Of a stretch of DNA of 64,000 bases, positions 1,186 through 20,124 are shown one piece after another. The notes under the pieces are model-generated. The model saw nothing but the letters and a program-made list of their open reading frames with translations, did no database searches and was not told the DNA's origin. The position numbers and the translations under genes are program-made. Position 1 is the first letter of the stretch. Each line of letters starts with the position of its first letter. Source of the stretch: an uncultured Thermoplasmata archaeon (GTDB lineage: Archaea; Thermoplasmatota; Thermoplasmata; Halarchaeoplasmatales; Halarchaeoplasmataceae); the NCBI GenBank assembly GCA_964486225.1, contig CAZAMQ010000001.1, forward strand, positions 2,660-66,659. Direction: 5' to 3'.

Positions 1186-3384
1186 CTAAAAATATCTACC
1201 GCGGCGTTCAGGAATATAATTATCGCTATCTCTATCAATTATTTTCCTTATTTTACCAATATATTCATTTTCTAGAGATTCTAGTTCATTACAATCTTTC
1301 ATGTTTTTACTTTCTTCAATAAATTCTTGTACTTTACCAAATATTTTTCCTTTCGTACTATGACTACCTAACAGGAAATGTTTATTTTCTGAAAATATTT
1401 TGAATAAATGAATTATAAATTCAATACTCATAAAAAGAAATTCATAATCAGAATTCTTAGTTACTCTCTCTCTTGCCTTTTTATTAAGACTTCCAGACCT
1501 AGAACCGTTCCGTAAAAGTTTTTTGCAAATAACCCAAATGATACTTTCACTTTTTATGAGTTTGCTATATTTTGATTCTTCAAGATCTTCTTTTGACTTA
1601 GAAAGTTCACTTTTAGGAATGTCCTTACGTTGTTTGGAATCAATTAAAAATATTTTATCATTAAGTTGAAGTGCACCATCAGTTTCATTAGCACCCCCTC
1701 CAGATAAATAATTGCCGAATAGATATCTCATCAATACATTAATGTGATCCTCGATCTCGTATCCTGCCCTCTTTTCATCCGCAAATCTTTCTCTAAATCC
1801 ATCTGGGTCGAAGTAATAATCCTCAAGTATCTTTATAGATCGACGAGATTCCTTTTCAACCATGAGTTGTTGATGATATTTAAACTGTCTTTGAGATGCT
1901 TTAACTATATATTCTATAACTTCTTCAGAACCTTTCGCTGTCAAAATTTTGTGATAATTCACTCGGGGTAAAATAACATTGTATATTTTATCGAATTTGT
2001 TGAACTGAGTTCTTGTAGCAAGGATGACTTTATAGAAACGCCGGTGTTCATCTGAAGGATCATCTGAATATGACTTAAGTATCAATGTTATTTTGTCTCC
2101 CAAACTTTTATCGTAATCTACTGATGTTATCCTATATTCCCTTCCTTCCAATTGTATATCACTCCTTTCTGAATTTTTCAAAATGTTATATATCTCCTCT
2201 GTTAGTTTATCTTTGTTTATATCTATAGATTCACCACCATTAACTTTCAGAATATCCTTTTCATAAAGAATTTCCAACCCTGATTCTTTAGACATTTCTT
2301 CTAGTGGTTGTAAATATTTAATTCTATAGTTAGAATTAGTGGTGAGAAGTTTATTTATGTAAAAGGAAGATGGTTTATAGTAAGGTTCATATACTTCAAT
2401 ATCATTTTTTTTCAGAATCGTTTCAATTTCATCTCTATATTTTTCGTATTCGTCTGGTAGTTCTAAAGCTATCTTTATGAATTCTTGATTTCCTTCAATT
2501 CTTTTGAATGTTTGAAAGTTCAATTTAAATTCTACATCTTCTTCTTTTTTAACATAAGTAAATGTACATTCATTTATTGACAATATATCCTGTTTATCGT
2601 GAAGGAGAAGATCATAATCTACGAAATCTTGTATATCGATAGGTGTTTCCTTTCCGGACGATACATTAAGAGAAATATCACAATTGTACGATGACAGTTT
2701 AATTTTCCTTAAAAAAATATCTTGGCTTTTCAAATTTGAAATGAAACTTGGTTTGATCTTCAATTCCTCATATTCTTCGGGTTCTTCGTCCTCAAGTTTT
2801 ATTGCGTCCATTTTTTCTGTATTACGTATAAATCTGCTTCTTTGGGTTTTGTTCCCAGATAAAAGTAATTGGTTATTGTCTTTATCTATTTCAATAAGTA
2901 AGGGCGGGTAAAATTCTATCTCTTCTGGTTTAAACATATCTGTATATTCTCTAGTTTTTATATGCCCCCCATATATTATTTTTGGATTTGTACCGTCTTT
3001 CAAAACTATATTGTTCCCCCTTCCTATATCCTCCAAAAAAGATTCAATATCAGTTGTTTCCTCAAACTTCTTAACATCATTTTTTCTAAAACCTTTTTTG
3101 AACCTAATTTTCAGTAAATCTTCGATGTATTGTCTAAAATTTTCCGCAGAATATGTTGGTTTATTTTCATTGAAAGATTCGGCGACTAGGTCAGAAATTC
3201 CATCCCAAAATTCCTCATTTTTCGTATCTACTTTCTCATATTTTCTTTGCAACTTTTGAATTGATGTATCATTTCTTTTGAAAACATTTTTTGCTGAAAT
3301 AAAGATTTTAGCATTTTTAGTGCAAAAGAGGAGAGGTAATATTCTATCTTTAAGATATTCTTTTTCTAACTGGTCTGGTTTCAT
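1186..3384 (-). CDS. Large orphan lysine/glutamate-rich protein (~733 aa from the MKPDQ start; the ORF extends to 3441). No recognisable catalytic motif (no P-loop). There is a possible weak D...EFK PD-(D/E)xK-like segment. It is the third gene of a coupled operon.
   Basis: Long uninterrupted ORF on the minus strand. The internal ATG at 3384 lies 1 nt after the stop of the upstream 93-aa gene (stop 3386-3388, ATG 3382-3384), implying translational coupling. I recognise no conserved family motif. Confidence 0.5.
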   Translation of the reverse strand: MKPDQLEKEYLKDRILPLLFCTKNAKIFISAKNVFKRNDTSIQKLQRKYEKVDTKNEEFWDGISDLVAESFNENKPTYSAENFRQYIEDLLKIRFKKGFRKNDVKKFEETTDIESFLEDIGRGNNIVLKDGTNPKIIYGGHIKTREYTDMFKPEEIEFYPPLLIEIDKDNNQLLLSGNKTQRSRFIRNTEKMDAIKLEDEEPEEYEELKIKPSFISNLKSQDIFLRKIKLSSYNCDISLNVSSGKETPIDIQDFVDYDLLLHDKQDILSINECTFTYVKKEEDVEFKLNFQTFKRIEGNQEFIKIALELPDEYEKYRDEIETILKKNDIEVYEPYYKPSSFYINKLLTTNSNYRIKYLQPLEEMSKESGLEILYEKDILKVNGGESIDINKDKLTEEIYNILKNSERSDIQLEGREYRITSVDYDKSLGDKITLILKSYSDDPSDEHRRFYKVILATRTQFNKFDKIYNVILPRVNYHKILTAKGSEEVIEYIVKASQRQFKYHQQLMVEKESRRSIKILEDYYFDPDGFRERFADEKRAGYEIEDHINVLMRYLFGNYLSGGGANETDGALQLNDKIFLIDSKQRKDIPKSELSKSKEDLEESKYSKLIKSESIIWVICKKLLRNGSRSGSLNKKARERVTKNSDYEFLFMSIEFIIHLFKIFSENKHFLLGSHSTKGKIFGKVQEFIEESKNMKDCNELESLENEYIGKIRKIIDRDSDNYIPERRGRYF

Positions 3385-3385
3385 G

Positions 3386-3667
3386 TTAACGCACCTCAAT
3401 ATATTCGTTAATTCTCTTCTTGGTTTCTGTGTACATCTCATTATAATTTTGTTGATCGTTAATTAGTATATGTCTATGACAGTATCCTCTTAAGTGTATC
3501 CTGTGGCGTTTCGGTATATCGCCTTTAACCATTTTCATAAAATTTAGAAATTCATTATTTCTGTTGTTGTTATACTCTATATGTTGTTTATAGATTTCAA
3601 ATAGTTGTTTTTCGTTGTCCTTGATTATTTGCTTTAACTGTTCATCATCTTCCCATATTTTTTCCAT
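3386..3667 (-). CDS. Small hypothetical protein (93 aa), the middle gene of the three-gene minus-strand operon.
   Basis: ORF flanked by 1-nt gaps to both neighbours: upstream stop at 3669-3671 versus ATG 3665-3667, downstream as above. Charged and lysine-rich, with no motif recognised. Confidence 0.4.
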   Translation of the reverse strand: MEKIWEDDEQLKQIIKDNEKQLFEIYKQHIEYNNNRNNEFLNFMKMVKGDIPKRHRIHLRGYCHRHILINDQQNYNEMYTETKKRINEYIEVR

Positions 3668-5615: not shown

Positions 5616-7019
5616 GTGATAGTTATGAGTAAAGAGGGACCCCTGGATGTAAAAATAGAAAAAGCGATTAGAAAGTCATCTCCGTCAAAAAAATCTACCT
5701 TCGATTTGATTAATAATTTCCTTTCTAATCGAGATTTGAACATATTTTTTAATCATTTGTCAACAAATCAACATTATAAGCAATTGTTGTTCCTTCATCG
5801 TTACGATTTGTTTGATCTTGAGGATGAAATGTTACCTTTGTATTTTCACCTTTGCAGCTTATCGATGGGTGAAAGTGAATTGGCGACACAAATAGAAGAC
5901 CCAACTCTAGAATATGTGATATCGAAAGAGAGTGAAGCTATAAGCAACGGTATGGTTTTTTTACAAAATTTATTAGCTTTAGATGAAGGTCAATGGGATA
6001 TATTCTTGGAGGACATAATGGATGTGGTGGCTTATTTATCAATCTATTTTATCAGATATAATCAGAATATTAAAAATCTAGTTAATGCTGAAATATTTGA
6101 CTACGAGACTATGAAAGCCGTTTTAAAAAGTTACGAGAATACTATTAATTTCAGCTCATTTATTGAGGAAACGGTATCCGCATTAGAAACTGACCAAGAT
6201 GTAATAGATCCGATTATAAAAGAAAAAATATTTAAACTACTTACACAGGTCTTCTCGGGGTTCAGAAAAAACCTGAATCTTCTAATAGAAGATACTGATA
6301 AATTTTTACCAAATTTCAAATTAACTTATCATTTATCATCTAGTATATTGATAAAAAAACTTCTATCGCTATCGGGCCTATCCTTTAATGAATATACAAA
6401 ATTTCTTGATGAACTATATCGAAATCGTTTGATCGAAAATAAAAGTACGATATTTTGGTGTGAAAATTGTAGTCTTGAGAATCCATCTTATTCGGAACAT
6501 CATGGCAGAATCGCACCTTCAAAAATATCTCGAAATAACTGTTTGTATTGTAATCAACCACAATCTTATGCATCTATATTTTCGATAGATACAACTTTAA
6601 AGGAGGCTATACTTTCTAAGGATGGCCTTTTGTCTGTTTATCTCGGTTGGTTATTAAAAAAAGAGGGTATCAAGTTTGAAGTTGGTGGATATACCGCTAA
6701 ATTTGAAAATGATTTCGTTATCGATAATTCTATTCTGGTAGAGTGTAAGATGTTTAAATCCAACAAAGATCGAGTTGCGATACGTTCTAATTTGGATAGT
6801 TGTTTTTCTCAAATTAAAAAGCATATCAAACAGTTAGAAAAAGAGGGAACAAAAATACAAAGAGCATATCTTGTTTGGAATCGAAGAGAAACAGAAAAAG
6901 AAATCCAGAATAAACTGGAATCCAAATATATGGAATTGTTTAGAAAATATAGTTTAAAAATCATATGCCCAGATAAGATAGAAGAACTTGTTGAGGTGAT
7001 AAAATCCTATGATCGATAG
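5616..7019 (+). CDS. Zn-ribbon + PD-(D/E)xK nuclease-like protein (467 aa).
   Basis: Central CxxC-x25-CxxC (CENCS...CLYCN). The C-terminal segment GGYTAKFENDFVIDNSILVECKMFK gives a D-x(6)-E-C-K pattern (nt ~6711-6758), typical of restriction-endonuclease-fold nucleases. 47 bp upstream of the next gene. Confidence 0.55.
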   Translation: MIVMSKEGPLDVKIEKAIRKSSPSKKSTFDLINNFLSNRDLNIFFNHLSTNQHYKQLLFLHRYDLFDLEDEMLPLYFHLCSLSMGESELATQIEDPTLEYVISKESEAISNGMVFLQNLLALDEGQWDIFLEDIMDVVAYLSIYFIRYNQNIKNLVNAEIFDYETMKAVLKSYENTINFSSFIEETVSALETDQDVIDPIIKEKIFKLLTQVFSGFRKNLNLLIEDTDKFLPNFKLTYHLSSSILIKKLLSLSGLSFNEYTKFLDELYRNRLIENKSTIFWCENCSLENPSYSEHHGRIAPSKISRNNCLYCNQPQSYASIFSIDTTLKEAILSKDGLLSVYLGWLLKKEGIKFEVGGYTAKFENDFVIDNSILVECKMFKSNKDRVAIRSNLDSCFSQIKKHIKQLEKEGTKIQRAYLVWNRRETEKEIQNKLESKYMELFRKYSLKIICPDKIEELVEVIKSYDR

Positions 7020-7066: not shown

Positions 7067-9973
7067 ATGTTGAAAATGAATGAAGAAGATTGCTTGAATG
7101 AATATGAAGATTTAAAGGATCTTTATACTGACTTCTCCATGGTAATTCGTACAATAATAGAGAACATTTTATACACAAATGACATAAATTATCAAGTTGT
7201 AACTAATAGGACGAAAAACGATGAATCTTTAAAACGCAAAGTTAAAGAAATCACCGACATTCACTCTGTAAGAGATATAGACGATCTAGCTGGTTGTAGA
7301 ATAATTTTCTATACGAACAAGGATACACAACGAATTGTTGGATATTTATGTGAAGAATTTGACGTTGTTAAAGAAAATTTAAAATATTCTGAAAAGAGTT
7401 ATAATGCTCTACATCTAGTTGTTAGATTAAAAGAAGATCGATTAAAGCTTTGTGAATACGAGATGTTTGATGGGCTTAAATGTGAAATTCAATTAACAAC
7501 AGTATTATTCCACGCATGGTCTGAGCTTGCACATGATTTAATCTATAAGCCTAAAGAAGATCTTTCTAAATTTGATGAACATGCATTTGATTCAATTGAA
7601 GCTCGATTTCGCAAGACAATGGGGGAACTAAAAAGGGTTCAAACGGATTTTGATTATATCATAAAGCAGTGGAAAGAAATTAGAAAAGGAAAAAAAATTT
7701 TTTCTGAAGAATTTCTATATGATCTGGAATCAGCAGGTTCTATTAATGATATTCAACAAAAGTTAAAACTCATTTTAGAACACGTTGAAAAATTTGGTGA
7801 TAAAACACCAAAAGAATTACAAATAATCGAAATAATTAACAACGCTCTAAAAAAATCAAAAACACTCAAAAAAGAACCTATCAAAACTCTTTTTGGTGAA
7901 CACCCAGGATTTGATTATTCCGATGTAGCTGATGTTAGTTTGGACATCTTCGATCGTTTGAAATATATTTATCCAAAAGATGTTTTTGATGAAATAAAAT
8001 GTTTATCTGTTGATTCAGAAGAAAAAGTTAAAAATAAAGCATTAGATGTTTCTTCAAAAATTGTTAAATATTCATTTGTACCAGAAAATGAAGCAATTTA
8101 CTATCATATCCAATCATTTGTCACCGAAGAAATTGAAAATTGGGACGATGAAACATTGCTTAGATATTTCAATCTAACAGTAAAGGTATCCGATGAGTTG
8201 CTTTCCCCTTCGTTTCACACTGTTTTGCCTAGTGGGTATGATAAAATTTCTTTATACCAAGGCCCACTACCTCCAAACGACACATTAATAAGAATAAGAG
8301 AAAGAACAATATGTATTCTTAAACGGCTATATACTATATCTGAAACTCTCTCGAACAAACACAAAGTTTTAAAGACGCTCAAAAAAGCAACCCTAACACC
8401 CAATGAAGAAGATTATTCGCCAGAATTAAAAAGGGTTATTTTGGATAATACAAATGATGTAATATCTTTTTACATATACCTTGTCGAAGATTCTGATAAT
8501 GAAATAATTCAGATTATTGAGCAACAATTGAACGGTTTTATAAAAAGATTTAAAGATGATTTGATATATTCGGATAAATTAAATGAAATGATTAGTAAAA
8601 ACGAGGATTATAAGGTACACAAAGTACTTGTGGGTTGGGATATTAACTACTTCAATGACTATCAATATGAAAAGGCAGAAATCGAGAGAAAACAAAAAAT
8701 TAATGAATATGTAACACAGATTAACGAAGAGTGTATTAATGATTGGGAAAATAAATTTTTATCTATTCTAAAAAATTACAATCAAGTTAACTCTCGAAGC
8801 GAATATCGGTATCTTAGATATTTCTTAGAAAATTTGGGTGAACAAAAACCTCGGATTGGGTTTGAACTAGCCTTAAAAATAGATTTTGAACTAGGACCTT
8901 TTTTGGACAGTCTAGTAACTGGTATTTGGAAAAGCCCCGAAAAGGATTTGGCTAAGGAATTATTGTCACGTTGGATAAAGGAAGGAAAGCATTTGTCAAC
9001 GTGTCCAAATGTATTCTCTCATACTCATGAAACCGACCTCACATTGTTATCTATGTGTTATGAAAAGGCGAAAGAGCAAAAAGATATTGATGTTATTATT
9101 GGTATCGTAATATGCATTTCAATAAACTATGACCAAAATCCAGACCATAAAACCATATTTATTAATTGCATCAAAGAACTAAATAAATATGGAAATTATA
9201 TATGGACAAATTGTTTTATCCACAATGATAATTCTATATTAAGAGACATTGACAAAATAGACCTAGATGTACTTTTAGAAAATTTCAAATATGCTCCGAG
9301 AATTGATCATGATTTGGAATTAATATTATCGGAATTTGCACACCAATATCCTGGAGAGATAATCGACTTTTTTTATGAAAGAATTAAAGTGCAAAGAGAA
9401 AAAGATGGAAATGATAGATATCATGCAATACCTTTTTCATTACATATTTTAAATGAATCCTTAAGTAAAAATCCTGTGAAAGTTATCGACGAAATTTTGA
9501 AATGGTTTGATATCGAAGATAGATTATTATGTATTGAATGGGCTAATTTAATTGAATTGATTTTCCCGGAGTTTCATCCTGAACTAGAAGATAAATTAAT
9601 CAAATTACTACGATCTAAAGATGATAAAATAGAGATTATTGTTTTGTGTATCTTACGCGCATATGATGGTCAAAAATTTTTACACGAAGTTTGTAAAGAG
9701 TTTATCAAGCAATGCCCTGAGAAAAAGGAGTATCAACAAGAAATGTTCTTAATACTTTCTGGAACAGTTGGTGGTTTTGGTGAATACGCAATTTGTGAAT
9801 CTTATAAAAAGAAAAGAAGAGAGATTCAGGAATGGAAAAAAGATGAAAATATCGCAATTCAAAAATTTGCTATACTGTATGATCGCTATTTATCTAGTAT
9901 GATAAACTACGAAAAAAAGAGAGTAGATGAAAGTGTTGAATTTATGAAAAGAGAATTTGAAACTCATGGCTGA
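7067..9973 (+). CDS. RelA/SpoT-domain (nucleotide pyrophosphokinase / alarmone-synthetase fold) protein. The synthetase-like domain is at aa ~28-165, followed by a ~800-aa alpha-helical C-terminal extension of unknown function.
   Basis: All three hallmark synthetase motifs are seen directly: RxKxxxSxxxK as R48-TKNDESLKRK-58, DxxGxR as DDLAGCRIIF (aa 72-81), and the EIQ(I/L)T...W(A/S)ExxH..YK block as CEIQLTTVLFHAWSELAHDLIYK (aa 139-161). No HD hydrolase, TGS or ACT regions are recognisable. Confidence 0.7.
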   Translation: MLKMNEEDCLNEYEDLKDLYTDFSMVIRTIIENILYTNDINYQVVTNRTKNDESLKRKVKEITDIHSVRDIDDLAGCRIIFYTNKDTQRIVGYLCEEFDVVKENLKYSEKSYNALHLVVRLKEDRLKLCEYEMFDGLKCEIQLTTVLFHAWSELAHDLIYKPKEDLSKFDEHAFDSIEARFRKTMGELKRVQTDFDYIIKQWKEIRKGKKIFSEEFLYDLESAGSINDIQQKLKLILEHVEKFGDKTPKELQIIEIINNALKKSKTLKKEPIKTLFGEHPGFDYSDVADVSLDIFDRLKYIYPKDVFDEIKCLSVDSEEKVKNKALDVSSKIVKYSFVPENEAIYYHIQSFVTEEIENWDDETLLRYFNLTVKVSDELLSPSFHTVLPSGYDKISLYQGPLPPNDTLIRIRERTICILKRLYTISETLSNKHKVLKTLKKATLTPNEEDYSPELKRVILDNTNDVISFYIYLVEDSDNEIIQIIEQQLNGFIKRFKDDLIYSDKLNEMISKNEDYKVHKVLVGWDINYFNDYQYEKAEIERKQKINEYVTQINEECINDWENKFLSILKNYNQVNSRSEYRYLRYFLENLGEQKPRIGFELALKIDFELGPFLDSLVTGIWKSPEKDLAKELLSRWIKEGKHLSTCPNVFSHTHETDLTLLSMCYEKAKEQKDIDVIIGIVICISINYDQNPDHKTIFINCIKELNKYGNYIWTNCFIHNDNSILRDIDKIDLDVLLENFKYAPRIDHDLELILSEFAHQYPGEIIDFFYERIKVQREKDGNDRYHAIPFSLHILNESLSKNPVKVIDEILKWFDIEDRLLCIEWANLIELIFPEFHPELEDKLIKLLRSKDDKIEIIVLCILRAYDGQKFLHEVCKEFIKQCPEKKEYQQEMFLILSGTVGGFGEYAICESYKKKRREIQEWKKDENIAIQKFAILYDRYLSSMINYEKKRVDESVEFMKREFETHG

Positions 9974-10047: not shown

Positions 10048-10743
10048 TCACTGTATGTTTTCCTTAACCCTCTCCCTCCGCTCCTCATTCGGAGGATGGA
10101 ACTGAACCCCTAGCATTTTCAAATACGCTCTTGCAACCCCCTTCTCGATCTTAAACCCCAACGCCTCCTTGTTCTCATCAGAAACCCGGGATAACGTCGT
10201 TTCGTAATCGATCCCATCGATGATCTCCAGTGCTTCATAGGCAACATCCCAGGGGTTTTTGATGTTGCAGGCCTCCTGCATCATCTTTGCGGCCCAGAGA
10301 TCGCATTTGTTTTCGATGTCCCAATTTCCCTTGTATGTGAACTTGGGGCTGATCAATGCTATGGCGGTGAAGATGATGAAGGCAGAGATGGGGTATATTC
10401 CGCTCATGTTCAATATGTACACGGGTACGTAATAAGAGATCACTGCTATCGTGAGGAAGAAGATGAGGAGGTTGAATAGAGCGTTCTTTTTCAGAGGATA
10501 TCTCGATAAGTGTGCTTCTTCGTGTAGTAGTGCGAAGGTGATGTGTTCTTTTTTTAGTTCCTTCAGATCGTTGAAATACGGGTTGTAAAGGATCGCACTG
10601 GTGCCGGCTTTGAATGACTTTGTTTTTAACGGTGCCTGGACCAGTTTTCTGTTTTTGTCGATCAGGTATCGTTTGTTTTTATCCGATGATGCTTCGGTGT
10701 TTTGAAGCTGTGTAAATATCTCTCTGATCCTATCGTTTTTCAT
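10048..10743 (-). CDS. Membrane-associated HExxH zinc-metallopeptidase-like protein (231 aa).
   Basis: LLHEEAHL motif followed by 2-3 hydrophobic helices. The gene is conspicuously GC-richer (~50 %) than the flanking AT-rich DNA. Confidence 0.45.
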   Translation of the reverse strand: MKNDRIREIFTQLQNTEASSDKNKRYLIDKNRKLVQAPLKTKSFKAGTSAILYNPYFNDLKELKKEHITFALLHEEAHLSRYPLKKNALFNLLIFFLTIAVISYYVPVYILNMSGIYPISAFIIFTAIALISPKFTYKGNWDIENKCDLWAAKMMQEACNIKNPWDVAYEALEIIDGIDYETTLSRVSDENKEALGFKIEKGVARAYLKMLGVQFHPPNEERRERVKENIQ

Positions 10744-10883: not shown

Positions 10884-11138
10884 ATGTCGCTTAAAGAAAG
10901 GATTAACAAAATACTTTTGGAAACAAAATATCCAATATATTGGATATCAATGTTTGTTATAATTTTAATGCTATCGATTTATATTGTGCACAATTTCAGA
11001 GATAATTGTTTTCTATTTTCTTCTATAATATTATTGTCTGCAGTTTACATTTATACATTTTGGTGTGAATCGAATGAAAATAGTTACTCGAACTATGCTT
11101 TAAGCCTAGGCACATTAATTATTATTCTCATTGTATAA
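10884..11138 (+). CDS. Small hydrophobic two-TM protein (84 aa). Hypothetical.
   Basis: ORF with two hydrophobic stretches. It ends 9 bp before the left inverted repeat of the IS element. Confidence 0.3.
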   Translation: MSLKERINKILLETKYPIYWISMFVIILMLSIYIVHNFRDNCFLFSSIILLSAVYIYTFWCESNENSYSNYALSLGTLIIILIV

Positions 11139-11146
11139 CCTAGAGA

Positions 11147-12220
11147 GATATGTCACCCCTCTATTGAGAAGGTAGAAGTATCTTCTCCAATTTAAGTGCT
11201 TTGACGAGCTTGTCAAACCATTTGAGATCTACCTCACCAGAATATTTATCCTCCGGACAAGTATCTATTGCCGAATGATGCTTTCCGTTATTGTACCAAT
11301 GGTTGTAAATTCGGATGAATTTATCGATCTTAGTTCTGTTCCTTGAATTACCAATGTGATGTCTAAGGAAACGCTTCAGACCTTTTTGATATGCACTTAG
11401 CTTTCCGAGTGTTTGTGGATGGTGTATACTAGACCATATATGCTTTTGATTGACGTATTCAGAACAGTATTTTCTCATCTCATTATTCTTTCTGTTGAAT
11501 TGTGTCCCATTATCAGTGAGAAGATTATCATACTTTGTTTTGATTAACTTTTTCATCCCCTGGATAACAGTCTTATCTTTTGCATCTCTTAAAGATACAG
11601 CCCATCCTTTTCTAGAATGGTCGTCTTCCATTGTTAGAAGGGAGACGCCATTAAATGAAGTCAGATCTGCCTGTATCAAACGGTTTGGATGTCCCCATTC
11701 AAACCGTTTCCAATCGTTTTGAACACGTCTCTCACGTTCGATCTCACCTTCTCTTACGAGGATATTGTAAGTAAGAGAGGGATATAGACGTTTAGTCATA
11801 CCAGCTCTTTGTAAACTTTGATTGACAATGTCTGATACTGGTTTTGGTCCAAAACCGGTAGCTTTCCTTACAGCTATGACTTTATCTTCGATTTCTTTGG
11901 GAGTTTTATTAGGTATTCTTTTTGGCCGTTTTGATTTAAAACGCAATCCTGCAATCCCTTCCTCCCGAAATCTCTTTAGAATCCTGTAAAATTGTCGAAG
12001 ACTTCGACCGATCATCTCAGATGCTTTTTTACGAGTGATTCCAAAAGGCTTAGGGACTAGTGTTTTCGCAACAGCTCCGTAACGTTCTTTCACATAGCTT
12101 GGCTCATCCTTGAGAACATCGATGTGTTCCCTATCCAAATATATACTTCCTCTTTCTATTATCATTTCGTGTCACCTCTTTGTTGGTGAGTTTATCATTC
12201 CGACAAAGGGGTGACACATC
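11147..12220 (-). mobile_element. IS481-family insertion sequence (~1.07 kb) with 14-bp imperfect terminal inverted repeats (GATATGTCACCCCT / AGGGGTGACACATC).
   Basis: IRs at 11147-11160 and 12207-12220 match 13 of 14 positions and bracket a single DDE transposase ORF. The termini begin with TGT, as in IS481/IS3-like elements. No target-site duplication is discernible. Confidence 0.75.
11161..12165 (-). CDS. IS481-family DDE transposase (rve integrase core).
   Basis: N-terminal HTH region. IQADLT resembles the WQxD first catalytic aspartate motif. TDNGTQF is the classic rve TDNG(x)EF motif. HPQTLGKLSAYQKGLK is the HPQTxGkxER motif. Length 334 aa. Confidence 0.85.
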   Translation of the reverse strand: MIIERGSIYLDREHIDVLKDEPSYVKERYGAVAKTLVPKPFGITRKKASEMIGRSLRQFYRILKRFREEGIAGLRFKSKRPKRIPNKTPKEIEDKVIAVRKATGFGPKPVSDIVNQSLQRAGMTKRLYPSLTYNILVREGEIERERRVQNDWKRFEWGHPNRLIQADLTSFNGVSLLTMEDDHSRKGWAVSLRDAKDKTVIQGMKKLIKTKYDNLLTDNGTQFNRKNNEMRKYCSEYVNQKHIWSSIHHPQTLGKLSAYQKGLKRFLRHHIGNSRNRTKIDKFIRIYNHWYNNGKHHSAIDTCPEDKYSGEVDLKWFDKLVKALKLEKILLPSQ

Positions 12221-12305
12221 TTAATGGTTTACACAAATTATTATTCTCATCATTATCTCAAGATTTATTTGGGATAGGGATTCTGCAATTAACATTAGTG
12301 TTGCT

Positions 12306-12701
12306 GTGGGGACAGTATCTGGGCCCGTGATGGCATACTTTGCATTTATGTTTTATGAAGAGACAAAAAGGGTAGAAAAAAAGGAGCGACAAAAAACCGA
12401 ATGGTATAGAAGATTACATATAATATTGAACAACAGAGAATTGAACAAATTGGTAGGAAATAAGGATATTGACTTAGCAGTGAATCAGGGAACTTATGAG
12501 AGATATGAAAAGATCATTGAGAACATGGAAAGATTATGGATAGATAAGCCAGAAACTATAGACGAAGAAATAGCGGAAAAAATTTTTAAGATTATATCCG
12601 AACTTCAAGATACAACGGCACCAGCTAGCATATCTTTTATCTGTGAACACATGCCCCAAAAAATTAAACAACTAAGAATGTTAGTAAAAAAACATATTTG
12701 A
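12306..12701 (+). CDS. Hypothetical protein (131 aa) with a hydrophobic N-terminus, directly upstream of the HEPN gene.
   Basis: ORF only. Same strand as the HEPN gene, 61 bp upstream of it. Confidence 0.35.
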   Translation: MGTVSGPVMAYFAFMFYEETKRVEKKERQKTEWYRRLHIILNNRELNKLVGNKDIDLAVNQGTYERYEKIIENMERLWIDKPETIDEEIAEKIFKIISELQDTTAPASISFICEHMPQKIKQLRMLVKKHI

Positions 12702-12762: not shown

Positions 12763-14112
12763 ATGGATTACACCGAGTATAAAGGTAAATGGTGGCTCCC
12801 AGGTAAAGAGTATAATAAGATATTTGGAACATTGAAATTCTACCCAAATGATCGTTTGGAACTTGAAGTTAATGGTATTTTTGAATCACTACCTTTTGGT
12901 CGGCTGATTGAATTCACCCAGTATGATTTCATTTATGGGGAAGATTACAATGGTAAAAAAATTACATTATTTAAAAATAGAGAAACGTATAGAAGTAAAG
13001 ATATTGAATCCCGATATTTAGTTGTATATGCATTCATAGGACATCACTTTGTTAATGAAAAAGAAATATCTTTCGATGAGATAGAAATCAATTTTCATAA
13101 TCTTAAAGAATGGTTTGGTTTGTCAGGAATTGGTTATGAATATGATGATGTAAGTTTTGCCTATCGATATACCGAGCAAGACATTATTAAAAATAATATT
13201 GATGGCGAATATGAGTTGAATTTTATTTTCGGCTGTCCTTGTGAAATGAAAGGTACAGGTCCTACAGAGATATATTTAAAGGATGAATGTTCTCTAGAAA
13301 TTAAGAAACATTTCGAAAAATCTCTTGATCGATATTTTGAAATAATAGAAATGCTCAAAGTATTTTTTTCTTTATCGATGCAATTACCTATTTATATGAC
13401 TAACATGAATGGAGTGGTTAGCGACGAAGGACCCTGTTGTAATATTTTATTTGGAGATATCCGAGATGAAAAAGATTTACAAAAAGTTCATAAATTCCAA
13501 ATGCCATTAATTTATGATAGAATCTCAGAAGAATTTGAAGGTGTTTTAAAAAACCTTCACAGATCCTACCATAAATTTGAAAACATGTTTAATTTGTACC
13601 ATGGCATAATATACAATCAAAATATGTTTCCAAGACAAGAATTTTTATTTTTGGTTAATGCATTAGAATCATATCATCGTTTGTGGCTAAAAGACAAATA
13701 CATCTCTGATGAAGATTTTAAAAATAAAGTTTACAATAAGTTAGTTGACGCGATACCGGATGATATCCCTGTAGATTTGAAAAATAGTTTGAAGTCAAGG
13801 TTACAATATCACAATGAATACTCCCTCAAGAAAAGATTGGATGAAGTTTTTGAAAGGTTTATAGAACCTATTGATTTTATAATAGAGAATCGAGATGATT
13901 TTACAAACAGAGTCAAAAATATGCGAAATTATTATTCACATTATTTTGAACTTGAAGAAGAAATAACCTTTGAAGAATTAAATAATATTAAAGAAAAATT
14001 GAAAACCATCGTAGAAATTTGTATCCTTGGGGAAATAGATGTAGATCTGGCAAACGATTTGGAAATAGTTGATAAATTATACAAAAATAAAAGAAAATTC
14101 ATAAGTTTTTGA
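12763..14112 (+). CDS. HEPN-domain protein of the Abi_2 (AbiD/AbiF) / ApeA-like abortive-infection type (449 aa).
   Basis: C-terminal MRNYYSHYF (nt 13921-13947) matches the Rx4-6H HEPN signature in its RNxxxH form, which is characteristic of Abi_2. Large alpha-helical protein inside an AT-rich accessory island. Confidence 0.55.
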   Translation: MDYTEYKGKWWLPGKEYNKIFGTLKFYPNDRLELEVNGIFESLPFGRLIEFTQYDFIYGEDYNGKKITLFKNRETYRSKDIESRYLVVYAFIGHHFVNEKEISFDEIEINFHNLKEWFGLSGIGYEYDDVSFAYRYTEQDIIKNNIDGEYELNFIFGCPCEMKGTGPTEIYLKDECSLEIKKHFEKSLDRYFEIIEMLKVFFSLSMQLPIYMTNMNGVVSDEGPCCNILFGDIRDEKDLQKVHKFQMPLIYDRISEEFEGVLKNLHRSYHKFENMFNLYHGIIYNQNMFPRQEFLFLVNALESYHRLWLKDKYISDEDFKNKVYNKLVDAIPDDIPVDLKNSLKSRLQYHNEYSLKKRLDEVFERFIEPIDFIIENRDDFTNRVKNMRNYYSHYFELEEEITFEELNNIKEKLKTIVEICILGEIDVDLANDLEIVDKLYKNKRKFISF

Positions 14113-14343: not shown

Positions 14344-14823
14344 TTATTTAATCAAACTTAACAATGATTTATATCTTTTAGTATACATAGATAATAAAGT
14401 CATACTCCAGATTTCAACAAATATAGTGGAAAAGAATAATCCGAATAAATGATGCCACTCGGAATCAATTAACATCAACTTAGATGGACTCTTTACAACA
14501 TTATATACTAATATAAACATGTACAGACCTATTAATCCATTAAAAAATTTCATGGGTAATGGGTAACCCTTTAAAAAATCAAAATCTCCTTCACTTTGAT
14601 CAGCATCTTTATCATTATTTGTTTTTCTTCTAGCCCTTTCAAGGTCTGAATATGATAGAGAAATACCAAGTGGAACAGAGATTATTACTACTTGATGGAA
14701 AAAGGAAATGTTAAATCCCAAAAATTGGGTTGGAAGATATAAACTCAGCAATATCACCGTATACCAAAATAACCTTTTCTTTATCAGCAGAGATTCTAAC
14801 ATTTCATCATCAAATATCTTCAC
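14344..14823 (-). CDS. Hypothetical integral membrane protein (159 aa, ~4 TM helices).
   Basis: ORF with four hydrophobic segments. No motif recognised. Confidence 0.4.
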   Translation of the reverse strand: MKIFDDEMLESLLIKKRLFWYTVILLSLYLPTQFLGFNISFFHQVVIISVPLGISLSYSDLERARRKTNNDKDADQSEGDFDFLKGYPLPMKFFNGLIGLYMFILVYNVVKSPSKLMLIDSEWHHLFGLFFSTIFVEIWSMTLLSMYTKRYKSLLSLIK

Positions 14824-15563: not shown

Positions 15564-15758
15564 AGGGGATGCCAATCCCCGCAAGTCTTTGACTTCAGAT
15601 CCGGAAAGGGGAAAAAGATCGAAACACTCCGATTACTGGCGATCGAGGATAGGAGATCATCGTGCGATCTACGAAATCGAACATAAAAACGAACGGATCA
15701 TCGTATTATTTATTGGTCATAGAAAAGACGTTTACGATGATTTTTCACGATTGGTCTG
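15564..15758 (+). pseudogene. Truncated 3-prime remnant of a RelE/ParE (StbE)-family toxin gene.
   Basis: This frame translates to ...RSRIGDHRAIYEIEHKNERIIVLFIGHRKDVYDDFSRLV*, the characteristic C-terminal core of RelE/ParE toxins (YRIIYxIdxxnxxIxILrIGHRKDVY). The frame opens immediately after a stop at 15561-15563 and contains no ATG, so the ~35 N-terminal residues are missing. No antitoxin ORF lies upstream. Confidence 0.6.
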
Positions 15759-15978: not shown

Positions 15979-16914
15979 ATGAAAGTAAGACTCAATGCAC
16001 TTCAGATCGAGATAATGCAGTGCTTGATGAAGAGGGAATACGGAACCCTTAAACAGATATCGCTGGAGCTCGATAAGAGCCAATCCAGGATATCCTCTGT
16101 TGTTAGTGACCTGGAAAATAAGGGATTGGTCGATCTTGAAAAAAAGGGTCTTTCCAAAAAAATTTCCGTTGCAAACAGTAAACACGCATCTATTCTAAAA
16201 AAACTCTTTGCTATGCATCCAGTGGATTTCGAAAACTGCCTGTCAGGATCCGCCCTCGAAGTTCTTCAGCCGATCACTGAAGATGAACTAAGCCGCTCCG
16301 AAGTTTCCAAAAGGTGTGGTTATTCCGAAAGAACGGTGTCCAGGGTTTTTGATCGGATGAGAGAGAGAGGTATGATCGTTGAGGAAAGTGGTCTTTACAG
16401 CATCAATCCCAGATACGCTGCATTATCGGAGTTCATATCGGAATTTCAGTCGTATCTAAACGTTAAAAGATCTCGTTCTTTTTCTCCAACATCCACCATG
16501 ATATGGGAGAGAGGAAAAGAATTTATGGTAGAGACAAGAGAGACGAATGAAGAAGATTATTTTCTTACGGGATATGATAGATTAGCCGACTTCGGTGTAC
16601 CCCTGATAACCACAGGATCACGGTATTACTTTTATACCGAGATGAAAGACGAACTTGTGTTGGAAGATGTGTGCTTACATACACTAATACCCGATATTAG
16701 CAGTACCAGAAACCTCCTTTACGTATTACTGGCGATAGGAAAGAACAGAGTGAATTGGAGTTATCTGAAAATAGAATCTGTAAAATACGGGCTTGAGGAT
16801 ACTGCTGCGGCCCTAAAAGAGTACATGGATAGCCGTGGAAAGAAAAAAGCAAAGTATTTTCCTCCATGGGAAGAATATAAAACCAAGGCCAGGGAGTACG
16901 AGATAGATGTATAG
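15979..16914 (+). CDS. Transcriptional regulator with tandem winged-helix (MarR/Lrp-like) domains and an uncharacterised C-terminal domain (311 aa).
   Basis: Two HTH-like segments (LKQISLELDKSQSRISSVVSDLENKGLV and RSEVSKRCGYSERTVSRVFDRMRERGMIV). Overlaps the downstream gene by 8 nt. Confidence 0.55.
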   Translation: MKVRLNALQIEIMQCLMKREYGTLKQISLELDKSQSRISSVVSDLENKGLVDLEKKGLSKKISVANSKHASILKKLFAMHPVDFENCLSGSALEVLQPITEDELSRSEVSKRCGYSERTVSRVFDRMRERGMIVEESGLYSINPRYAALSEFISEFQSYLNVKRSRSFSPTSTMIWERGKEFMVETRETNEEDYFLTGYDRLADFGVPLITTGSRYYFYTEMKDELVLEDVCLHTLIPDISSTRNLLYVLLAIGKNRVNWSYLKIESVKYGLEDTAAALKEYMDSRGKKKAKYFPPWEEYKTKAREYEIDV

Positions 16915-17275
16915 GAAAACCTTTGGAATAGACTATATGGAACGGGAATTGGAGCGGTTAGGTGAAGCTCTTGATAGTGATGTAAAAATATATCTGATCG
17001 GTGGTGGGCGTATGCTGTATAGAGATGCAAAAGCAGCCACCAAAGATGTTGATATGGTTGTAACTGATCCATCATACTTGACATCGTTATCTTCCGGACT
17101 CAAGAAGCTAGGTTATGGCGAGATCAAAGAACTGCCGGTCGATTATAGAAGCTTGGGTGCATCAATTATTATGAAAAATGAAGACGGATTCCAGTTCGAT
17201 GTATTTTACAAAAAGGTGTGCAACAATCTATCGGTCGGTGAGAGGATGGTGACTTTGCTCCCATTTTCTCCATAA
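16907..17275 (+). CDS. Minimal nucleotidyltransferase (Pol-beta superfamily / MNT-like) protein (122 aa).
   Basis: IYLIGGGRMLYRDAKAATKDVDMVV matches the G[GS]-x9-13-DxD NTase signature. Translationally coupled to the upstream regulator. Confidence 0.5.
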   Translation: MYRKTFGIDYMERELERLGEALDSDVKIYLIGGGRMLYRDAKAATKDVDMVVTDPSYLTSLSSGLKKLGYGEIKELPVDYRSLGASIIMKNEDGFQFDVFYKKVCNNLSVGERMVTLLPFSP

Positions 17276-17502: not shown

Positions 17503-18891
17503 ATGAAATTCGTAGATCGAGAACAAGAATTGGATACCTTGAGGAAACTATACCGATCGGATGATTTCGAATTCATCTCACTTATCGGTAGAAGAAGAGT
17601 GGGAAAAACAGAACTGATAAAAGAATTCTTAAAAGAAACAGACGGTATATATATTTACATATCTTTAAGCGATGACAAGCAGCTAAGACTTCACACCGCA
17701 GAAAGATTGAACGAGATACTGGGTTTGAGTCTTGTAGGTGAACCTACATGGAGAGATATCATCGATGCTCTATTCGATAAAAGTGAGAAAAAAAAACTAT
17801 TCGTTGCCATAGACGAATTCCAGAGACTTTTGAATATAAATGAATCAGTGCCTTCACTTCTTCAGGGTGCTATAGACGAGAGAAAAAATTCTTCTAAGAT
17901 GCTGCTGTGCGTAGCTGGTTCCTCCATCGGTATGATGGAAAAATTGTTTCTTTCGGATGCCTCGCTTTACGGACGAAGAACACGTAACATCAAGTTGAAC
18001 CCTTTCGGCTATGAGGATGTGAGGAAATGGTTTGTTCCCCAAGATATGAACGAAGGATCCATATTGAAAAGGTATGCGGTCTTCGGTGGTACTCCTAAAT
18101 ATCTGGAGTTTGCAACAGATGGTTCGCTGATGGATAACATAGACGAACAGATACTTTCGCCCCGTTCATTGCTTTATGACGAGCCCTGGGTCCTTCTTTC
18201 AACCGAATTGAAATCTCCTGATAAGTATTTCGATATCATCAAGCTAGTATCAATGGGGAAGCAAACTCCCAAAATGATATCCGATCAGCTTGATCTCGAA
18301 AGAACTTCGTTAGGATATTATCTGAAAAAACTCCAAAAGGACTTTGATATGCTCGATAGAGTAGCACCCGTCACTGAAAAGATCACAAAAAGCAAGAAAA
18401 AGAGATATCGTATAAAGGACAATTTTTTCCGATTTTGGTTTCATTTTGTGTATCCCAACAAGGATCAACTTGAGATAGGTGATAGAGAGGGTGTAAAAGG
18501 TAAAATAGAATATGAATTCGACGGATACATGGGGAATATCTTTGAAGATGTGATCAGGGAGATCATCAAAAAAAGAAACGGGAACAGATTACTAGATTGG
18601 AGATTGAGGCGTTATGAAAAGATCGGACCTTGGTGGGATCGAAGGGGTGATGAGATCGATATCTGCGGTATATCGAAGGATGGATATCTCCTGGGGGAAG
18701 TCAAGTGGAGCTTATCCGATAAGAGAGATGTAAAAAAACTGCTGGAGAAGATGAGAAATTCTAAATTTGATCACGATCCACAATATATGATAGTATCCAG
18801 AGAGTTCACACCCGATGCAAAAGAATATTTGCGCCAAGAAGACGTAATACATTTTACTCTCCGAGATTTTCCGGAGATATGGTCTCTCTAG
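17503..18891 (+). CDS. Archaeal ATPase (Arch_ATPase AAA+ domain with C-terminal DUF234-like region).
   Basis: N-terminal FVDREQELDTLRKL...LIGRRRVGKTEL (Walker A) and DEFQ (Walker B) in the arrangement typical of PF01637. Length 462 aa. Confidence 0.8.
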   Translation: MKFVDREQELDTLRKLYRSDDFEFISLIGRRRVGKTELIKEFLKETDGIYIYISLSDDKQLRLHTAERLNEILGLSLVGEPTWRDIIDALFDKSEKKKLFVAIDEFQRLLNINESVPSLLQGAIDERKNSSKMLLCVAGSSIGMMEKLFLSDASLYGRRTRNIKLNPFGYEDVRKWFVPQDMNEGSILKRYAVFGGTPKYLEFATDGSLMDNIDEQILSPRSLLYDEPWVLLSTELKSPDKYFDIIKLVSMGKQTPKMISDQLDLERTSLGYYLKKLQKDFDMLDRVAPVTEKITKSKKKRYRIKDNFFRFWFHFVYPNKDQLEIGDREGVKGKIEYEFDGYMGNIFEDVIREIIKKRNGNRLLDWRLRRYEKIGPWWDRRGDEIDICGISKDGYLLGEVKWSLSDKRDVKKLLEKMRNSKFDHDPQYMIVSREFTPDAKEYLRQEDVIHFTLRDFPEIWSL

Positions 18892-19236: not shown

Positions 19237-20124
19237 ATGATGCGACTAAACATATTACAGCAGATGAGATCCCAACTGCTGGAAAGAACTTCCATCAAAG
19301 ATCTACCGGAACTGGTATGGAAGCGAAGTGGAGCTCTAAACACCTGGGGTACCAACGCCATTGAGGGCAGCACCATCGGACGGAAGGATGCAGAGAAGTT
19401 ACTGCTGGATGACACAACTCCCGCAGGAAAACCCGTGAAAGATGTTAGAGAAACGCTCCAGCACCAGGAGGCTTTCAGAGAGTTACCGGAATACGGAAAA
19501 ATAAACATGGAAAACATATTGGAAATGCATGAAACAGTATTTCGAGGTACTCTGGAGGATGCGGGACAGTGGAGAAGAGTTAATGTACGTATCACCGGGG
19601 CTAAATTCACACCACCTAGGATGGAAAAGGTAAGAGAAGAGATAAGTAGATGGGTGGACGAATACCATCAAAGAGACCTGGAAGGAGATGATGTTTTCAC
19701 TCTTGCAGCATGGATGCATTATGAACTCGAAAGGGTCCATCCCTTTGCAGACGGTAACGGCCGTATAGGAAGATTGCTCTTGAATCTGCATTTTATCAAC
19801 AGGAATTGGCCGCCGGTACACGTACTCCCGGCTCATCGAAATAAATACATAGATTCGTTGAACGACTATGCAGACGGTGATACCAAAAGTCTTGAAGATT
19901 TTTTAAAGATAAGGATGGGCGCAAGCCTGTTGGACCTGTTGGACCAGCTCGGCACAGCGGAGGACGAGATGATATCACTCAAGGATGCAGAAACTCCCTA
20001 CGAAGAAAAATACCTGGCTCTCAGGTGTAAACAGGGCGAGATACCCGCATTAAAGGAGGGACGGGAATGGAGGGTGAGTAAAAGAGCTTTGAGATTGTAC
20101 ACCGAGACGGTGGGAAGGAAGTGA
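19237..20124 (+). CDS. fic: Fic/Doc-family protein (filamentation induced by cAMP; AMPylation-type fold).
   Basis: Canonical Fic motif HPFADGNGRIGR (nt 19738-19773), i.e. HPFx(D/E)GNGR. Confidence 0.85.
   Translation: MMRLNILQQMRSQLLERTSIKDLPELVWKRSGALNTWGTNAIEGSTIGRKDAEKLLLDDTTPAGKPVKDVRETLQHQEAFRELPEYGKINMENILEMHETVFRGTLEDAGQWRRVNVRITGAKFTPPRMEKVREEISRWVDEYHQRDLEGDDVFTLAAWMHYELERVHPFADGNGRIGRLLLNLHFINRNWPPVHVLPAHRNKYIDSLNDYADGDTKSLEDFLKIRMGASLLDLLDQLGTAEDEMISLKDAETPYEEKYLALRCKQGEIPALKEGREWRVSKRALRLYTETVGRK

Follow-up and report, generated by a model that had tools for sequence, protein, structure and literature searches.

An ApeA-family HEPN protein encoded in a low-GC island of an uncultured Thermoplasmata archaeon

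A 64,000-nucleotide stretch of DNA from an uncultured Thermoplasmata archaeon (contig CAZAMQ010000001.1), referred to here as the window, carries at positions 12763–14112 of the plus strand a gene for a 449-amino-acid protein with an RNxxxH motif near its C-terminus. Which family of HEPN proteins does this gene represent, does it act alone or with a partner, and does it serve in defence? An earlier reading of the locus, made from the letters alone (the sequence-only reading), had described the product as an Abi_2/ApeA-like HEPN protein and as a single-gene candidate for abortive infection. The analysis presented here indicates that the gene most likely encodes a stand-alone, infection-activated HEPN ribonuclease (RNase) used in defence. 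The protein has a two-domain architecture and the HEPN fold, with both HEPN motifs intact, and it is encoded by a solo gene in an acquired island rich in candidate defence genes.

The open reading frame (ORF) is complete and starts with ATG, and the N-terminus of its product lines up with those of the family. Two Pfam models account for most of the protein. The first, ApeA_NTD1 (PF18862), matches with an E-value of 2.4e-40 and 139.2 bits against a gathering cut-off of 25.5, and residues 5–264 (12775–13554, plus strand) correspond to profile positions 1–270 of 271. This beta-rich domain is the presumed sensor or regulatory part. The second, HEPN_Apea (PF18739), matches with an E-value of 2.5e-24 and 86.7 bits against a cut-off of 24.4; here residues 297–428 (13651–14046, plus strand) correspond to profile positions 3–133 of 136. 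In PADLOC, the PDC-S58 model PDLC05048 covers almost the entire protein (1.1e-67; residues 1–444 on profile positions 1–445 of 461), two more PDC-S58 models match as well, and the C-terminal region also matches the 'Cas13-ApeA' HEPN models (9.4e-35). NCBIfam yielded no match. The protein contains no hydrophobic or transmembrane segment and is thus expected to be cytosolic. In view of these profile matches, it almost certainly belongs to the Pfam ApeA family (ApeA_NTD1 plus HEPN_Apea; PADLOC candidate family PDC-S58), which was defined by Anantharaman et al. in 2013 (PMC3710099). In other words, a large HEPN family that is already on record has gained an ordinary new member.

The ApeA part of the sequence-only reading is therefore borne out by both Pfam domains and by the HEPN fold described below, while the Abi_2 part is not. 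According to that part, the gene would encode an abortive-infection protein of the AbiD/AbiD1/AbiF type, and such an assignment can draw on the fact that the RNxxxH motif is common to the HEPN superfamily, as well as on the fact that AbiD-type proteins are likewise single-gene HEPN defences (PMC3710099; PMC11514479). Nevertheless, neither Abi_2 nor Swt1 matches the protein in Pfam at E≤1, no AbiD or AbiF model appears among its PADLOC matches, and the ApeA-specific models cover both of its halves. The RNYYSH sequence had been regarded as a signature of AbiD/AbiF, but a polar residue (N, D or H) after the arginine of the motif is a general feature of HEPN domains (PMC3710099), so the RN...H pattern does not point to Abi_2. 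Membership of Abi_2 is thus highly improbable, and it was rejected because PF07751 gives no match and the ApeA models cover the protein.

The motif itself was confirmed at the place where it had been noticed. The Rx4H catalytic motif R388-N-Y-Y-S-H393 (RNYYSH; residues 388–393, positions 13924–13941, plus strand) is the sole Rx4-6H sequence in the protein. Among 20,000 shuffles of the 449 residues, RNxxxH arose in 3.4% and Rx4H in 38%, so the pattern by itself carries little weight. Where it stands, however, goes far beyond what chance would give, as it lies inside the HEPN_Apea match and is conserved in relatives: in an alignment of 142 relatives, R388 and H393 are each retained in 141 and N389 in 136. 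The second HEPN motif, Ex3[KR], is present as E302-x3-R306 (ESYHR; 13666–13680, plus strand), in which E302 is conserved in 141, H305 in 136 and R306 in 132 of the same 142 relatives.

A structural model agrees with the layout described for HEPN domains, in which the Rx4-6H motif closes core helix 3 and is accompanied by the second motif, Ex3[KR] (PMC3710099). The AlphaFold (AF2) model built from the 142-sequence alignment reached a predicted local distance difference test score (pLDDT) of 95.0 and a predicted template modelling score (pTM) of 0.92; a run on the single sequence gave a pLDDT of 37, and the alignment-based model was the one used. In this model the N-terminal part is beta-rich, with strands through residue ~230, and the C-terminal part is all-helical, forming a four-helix up-down bundle that resembles HEPN domains of known structure and has a helical insert separating the second core helix from the third. 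The ESYHR motif is found inside helix 290–308. R388–H393 forms the C-terminal end of helix 377–393, which is core helix 3; beyond it come a loop and helix 403–424. The proposal that the motif lies on the HEPN catalytic helix, on which the sequence-only reading depended, is thereby upheld in the model and by conservation across relatives.

The remaining parts of the model agree with the family assignment. ApeA-NTD1 has been described as a mostly beta domain with conserved aromatic residues, and a mostly beta N-terminal domain of about 300 amino acids is expected for the family. The domain encoded in the window agrees with this description: it is mostly beta, and its conserved residues are G8, W10, W11, P13, G22, G59, T68, L69, G93, H95, F104 and W117. 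Additionally, the helical insert of the HEPN core contains the motif N351-E352-x-S354-L355-x2-R358 (N-E-[YF]-S-L-R-K-R; 13813–13836), which is strongly conserved in the family (N351 in 122, E352 in 129, S354 in 116 and R358 in 138 of the 142 relatives). This insert motif could bind the substrate or a ligand.

How widespread is this type of protein? When 1.84 billion cluster representatives were searched exhaustively with HMMER, 4514 relatives were recovered at E≤1e-3, of which 2463 also satisfied E≤1e-10. Their typical length is 450–470 amino acids; among the best 150, nearly all measure 440–480 amino acids and align from end to end. The closest relative is 54–56% identical, and the others share 35% or less. 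The combination of low identities and end-to-end matches shows that the window protein has diverged within a large family of uniform architecture. The relatives are found more in bacteria than in archaea, in diverse bacterial genomes and metagenome-assembled genomes (MAGs) as well as one Hadarchaeota MAG. Moreover, 18 plasmids, three of them haloarchaeal, carry relatives, which are annotated merely as 'HEPN domain-containing protein' and have insertion sequence (IS) elements and a RES toxin gene as neighbours. A search of a phage collection returned no homologue of the 449-amino-acid protein. A profile search with the N-terminal domain only gave three matches, all of which combine ApeA_NTD1 with HEPN_Apea, although this word-index search has little power to find other fusions.

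The neighbourhoods of the relatives provide an answer to the question of a partner. A search of genome contigs with a 4-sequence alignment yielded 15 loci, and a scan with the single protein yielded none. All-against-all BLAST of the flanking ORFs across 18 loci revealed no shared neighbour gene, with the exception of three related Anaerolineae MAGs that are syntenic. As no neighbour is conserved, the HEPN gene is best understood as a stand-alone single-gene unit, in agreement with the sequence-only reading. The same reading had suggested a possible partner in the small ORF at 12306–12701, located just upstream. This suggestion does not hold, since the ORF is the 3' part of a 232-amino-acid gene that has been split by an IS, and the closest homologue of the HEPN gene (locus L002) has an unrelated GIY-YIG ORF upstream instead.

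The disrupted gene deserves a short description. It extends over 10884–12701 on the plus strand, and its two parts, 10884–11130 and 12250–12701, join in frame to encode 232 amino acids. Once the IS and one copy of the flanking repeat are removed, a single open frame of 232 codons results; the frame restored in this manner identifies ORF 12306–12701 as a 3' fragment of a disrupted membrane-protein gene. The product has at least 3 hydrophobic segments in its N-terminal half and reaches the cut-off of no Pfam family, and no counterpart of it adjoins the homologues of the HEPN gene at the 18 loci. A two-gene system including ORF 12306–12701 was therefore rejected, given that this ORF derives from a gene broken by the IS and that no neighbour is conserved.

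The insertion sequence is IS481-like and occupies 11131–12236 on the minus strand; it is part of the context and not of the system. It encodes a transposase (11161–12165, minus strand) that matches the HTH_29, LZ_Tnp_IS481 and rve models of Pfam, and it is bounded by terminal inverted repeats of 30 nucleotides (11131–11160 and 12207–12236) that are 77% complementary. A perfect 13-bp direct repeat, ATTATTATTCTCA, flanks the element at 11118–11130 and 12237–12249, and this target duplication suggests that the insertion is recent. The window has just one copy of the element, whose guanine-plus-cytosine (GC) content of 0.385 differs from that of both the island and the core. Downstream of the HEPN gene lies a hydrophobic ORF of 159 amino acids (14344–14823, minus strand). 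The setting between an IS element and a membrane-protein gene in AT-rich DNA was thus correctly recognised from the letters.

On a larger scale, the gene belongs to a region of unusual composition. Its GC content is 0.287, compared with 0.484 for the 20–64 kb part of the window, and the first ~20 kb (1–20124) form a low-GC island with several matches to PADLOC candidate families. These include PDC-M30A at 27–1019 (3e-66), a 968-amino-acid RelA_SpoT nucleotidyltransferase protein resembling PDC-S33 at 7067–9973, a PDC-S27 protein with ATPase_2 and DUF234 domains at 17503–18891 (1e-40) and a Fic protein of the SoFic/PDC-S04 type at 19237–20124. Two large ORFs without a family are also present, at 1186–3441 (751 amino acids) and 5616–7019 (467 amino acids). 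The island is horizontally acquired and dense in candidate defence genes. Archaeal markers in the window are LonB (855 bits, above the cut-off) and PriL, and Pfam further identifies HVO_2833_C, TrmB and ATPase_2/DUF234 proteins; Rfam and tRNA features were absent from the window.

Several other genes of the island are of interest in their own right. A 56-amino-acid ORF at 15589–15759 matches only the C-terminal half of a ParE toxin (2.1e-8) and is probably a truncated toxin–antitoxin remnant. The gene at 15979–16914, whose product has a double winged helix and an HVO_2833_C domain, overlaps by 8 nucleotides with a 122-amino-acid ORF (16907–17275) that displays a nucleotidyltransferase-like GG...DxD pattern. 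Together, 15979–17275 may represent a regulator and nucleotidyltransferase pair of an AbiE-like or MNT-like type. On the minus strand, 10048–10743 encodes a 231-amino-acid protein with an HEEAH (HExxH) motif, hydrophobic segments and a weak match to Peptidase_M48 (E 0.027); the GC content of this gene is ~0.40, unlike that of its neighbours.

What could the HEPN protein do in such an island? A role in defence is supported by the company that the family keeps: relatives occur on plasmids and near defence systems, one of them (locus P0003) being flanked by an AlwI-type restriction–modification (R-M) system and by SIR2-HerA, and the flanks of the gene in the window match PDC-M30A, PDC-S33, PDC-S27 and SoFic. 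For proteins of this kind, established HEPN biochemistry predicts that two copies would dimerise through their HEPN domains and thereby create a composite, metal-independent endoribonuclease site (PMC3710099), and that cleavage would leave 2',3'-cyclic phosphate ends. By analogy with the ~600-amino-acid ApeA proteins, PrrC/RloC and AbiA-type HEPN proteins, the N-terminal domain would keep the enzyme latent until a cue of infection is sensed. The activated enzyme might then cut viral RNA or host RNA, the latter in tRNA anticodon loops or elsewhere, and this cleavage would be expected to stop virus multiplication. As for the abortive outcome that the sequence-only reading had assumed, characterised ApeA proteins have been reported both as abortive and as non-abortive (10.64898/2026.01.26.701840; 10.64898/2026.03.20.713152).

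The same neighbourhoods could also be read in another way, with the gene as a selfish toxin or an addiction module serving to stabilise the island or a plasmid, or else as an inactive remnant, rather than as an antiviral gene. The plasmid-borne relatives stand beside IS elements and toxin genes, a related short homologue has been reported as untransformable and is presumably toxic (10.64898/2026.03.20.713152), and the island has toxin–antitoxin-like remnants such as the ParE fragment. On the other hand, an antitoxin-like neighbour is not conserved in the 18 loci, and HEPN proteins that stand alone in defence islands and have an N-terminal sensor typically act as effectors of defence (PMC3710099). 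Decay of the gene is contradicted by a full-length ORF in which every family-conserved residue is intact; it is for this reason that the gene is not considered a pseudogene, and that reading was rejected. Overall, this alternative appears quite unlikely, and the infection-activated defence RNase is preferred.

Several points nonetheless weigh against this preferred reading. In the searchable literature, no experimental test of any protein combining ApeA_NTD1 with HEPN_Apea was found, and a literature search returned no papers on PF18739 or PF18862. PDC-S58 is just a candidate family, listed in one survey (PMC11514479). If the HEPN gene is co-transcribed with the split membrane-protein gene, the IS located 0.5 kb upstream may alter its transcription. 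The other points concern the link to the experimentally studied ApeA. Ec1ApeA (WP_000706972.1; sequence taken from an E. coli genome, L018:3001–4806) matches neither ApeA_NTD1 nor HEPN_Apea at E≤1. It matches only the PADLOC ApeA model PDLC02157 (1386 bits), which is absent from the matches of the window protein at E≤1. An hhalign comparison of the 142-member family with a 17-member Ec1ApeA family was not significant (probability 0.44%, E 0.13), with 29 columns aligned around a shared 'ALE' helix. Finally, the N-terminal domain of the window protein is beta-rich in the model, whereas the N-terminal and Mid domains of characterised ApeA are predominantly helical (10.64898/2026.01.26.701840).

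These differences bear directly on whether the window protein might be a true orthologue or close equivalent of characterised ApeA. The ~600-amino-acid proteins form decameric or dodecameric rings and are activated via a pocket lying where the N-terminal domain meets the HEPN domain, Ec2ApeA by 5'-phosphorylated deoxydinucleotides; they cleave tRNA anticodon loops in an abortive manner (10.64898/2026.01.26.701840) or RNA-phage genomes in a non-abortive one (10.64898/2026.03.20.713152). Defence that depends on the HEPN RNase has been demonstrated for them in both studies (10.64898/2026.01.26.701840; 10.64898/2026.03.20.713152). A close equivalent would be expected to share the rings, the nucleotide-activated inter-domain pocket, the cleavage of tRNA anticodons and the resulting cell death. 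Such equivalence is unlikely, given the lack of a profile link, a length of 449 against ~600 amino acids, a beta-rich rather than helical N-terminal domain and the fact that no Mid domain was identified. Because the N-terminal domains differ, the ring, the dinucleotide pocket and the tRNA target are not to be assumed for the window protein, and because Ec1ApeA matches neither Pfam model and no profile connects the two, the published mechanism transfers by analogy only. Neither a PDLC02157 match nor detectable homology to Ec1ApeA, which would mark the ApeA of Gao et al. 2020, was found; judged by sequence, the window protein cannot be assigned to the ApeA system that has been validated by experiment. 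The first 133 residues of Bm1ApeA lack the GxWWLP N-terminus and give no evidence about the ApeA_NTD1 class, and one 2026 preprint mentions a 467-amino-acid 'minimal homologue'.

In annotation, a confident name for the gene is ApeA-family HEPN gene (ApeA_NTD1/HEPN_Apea, PDC-S58), not AbiD/AbiF, and the ORF upstream can likewise be labelled a membrane-protein gene disrupted by an IS. The gene in itself is not surprising. Its wider relevance lies in a naming gap and in the status of the short class, including this archaeal copy. Two groups are called 'ApeA', the short Pfam class and the studied ~600-amino-acid class, and as no profile links them here, published ApeA mechanisms should not be transferred to PDC-S58-type genes without a test. 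An apparently intact archaeal copy from an island crowded with candidate defence genes is a reasonable representative of the short ApeA_NTD1 class.

In comparison with known systems, the protein shares different features with each. AbiD and AbiF of the Abi_2 group belong to the same HEPN superfamily and are single-gene abortive-infection proteins, often near R-M systems, but they constitute another HEPN family, without a profile match to the window protein and without ApeA_NTD1. HepT of the HepT-MntA system, Csm6 and the C-terminal HEPN domain of AbiA have 10–13% sequence identity to the window protein; none possesses ApeA_NTD1, and their regulators are the MNT antitoxin for HepT, the CARF domain for Csm6 and the polymerase domain for the AbiA HEPN. 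The ApeA proteins of Gao et al. 2020, Ec1ApeA and Ec2ApeA, resemble the window protein as single genes with a C-terminal HEPN RNase whose domain has extra helical insertions. They also have an RNxxxH motif, which reads RNKITH in Ec1ApeA, and an N-terminal non-catalytic region, although these proteins are ~600 rather than 449 amino acids long. With the Pfam ApeA family, PDC-S58, the window protein shares both domains at full length, the typical size, the conserved Rx4H motif and a mostly-beta N-terminal domain, while differing in its divergent sequence, its archaeal host and its location in a 29% GC island.
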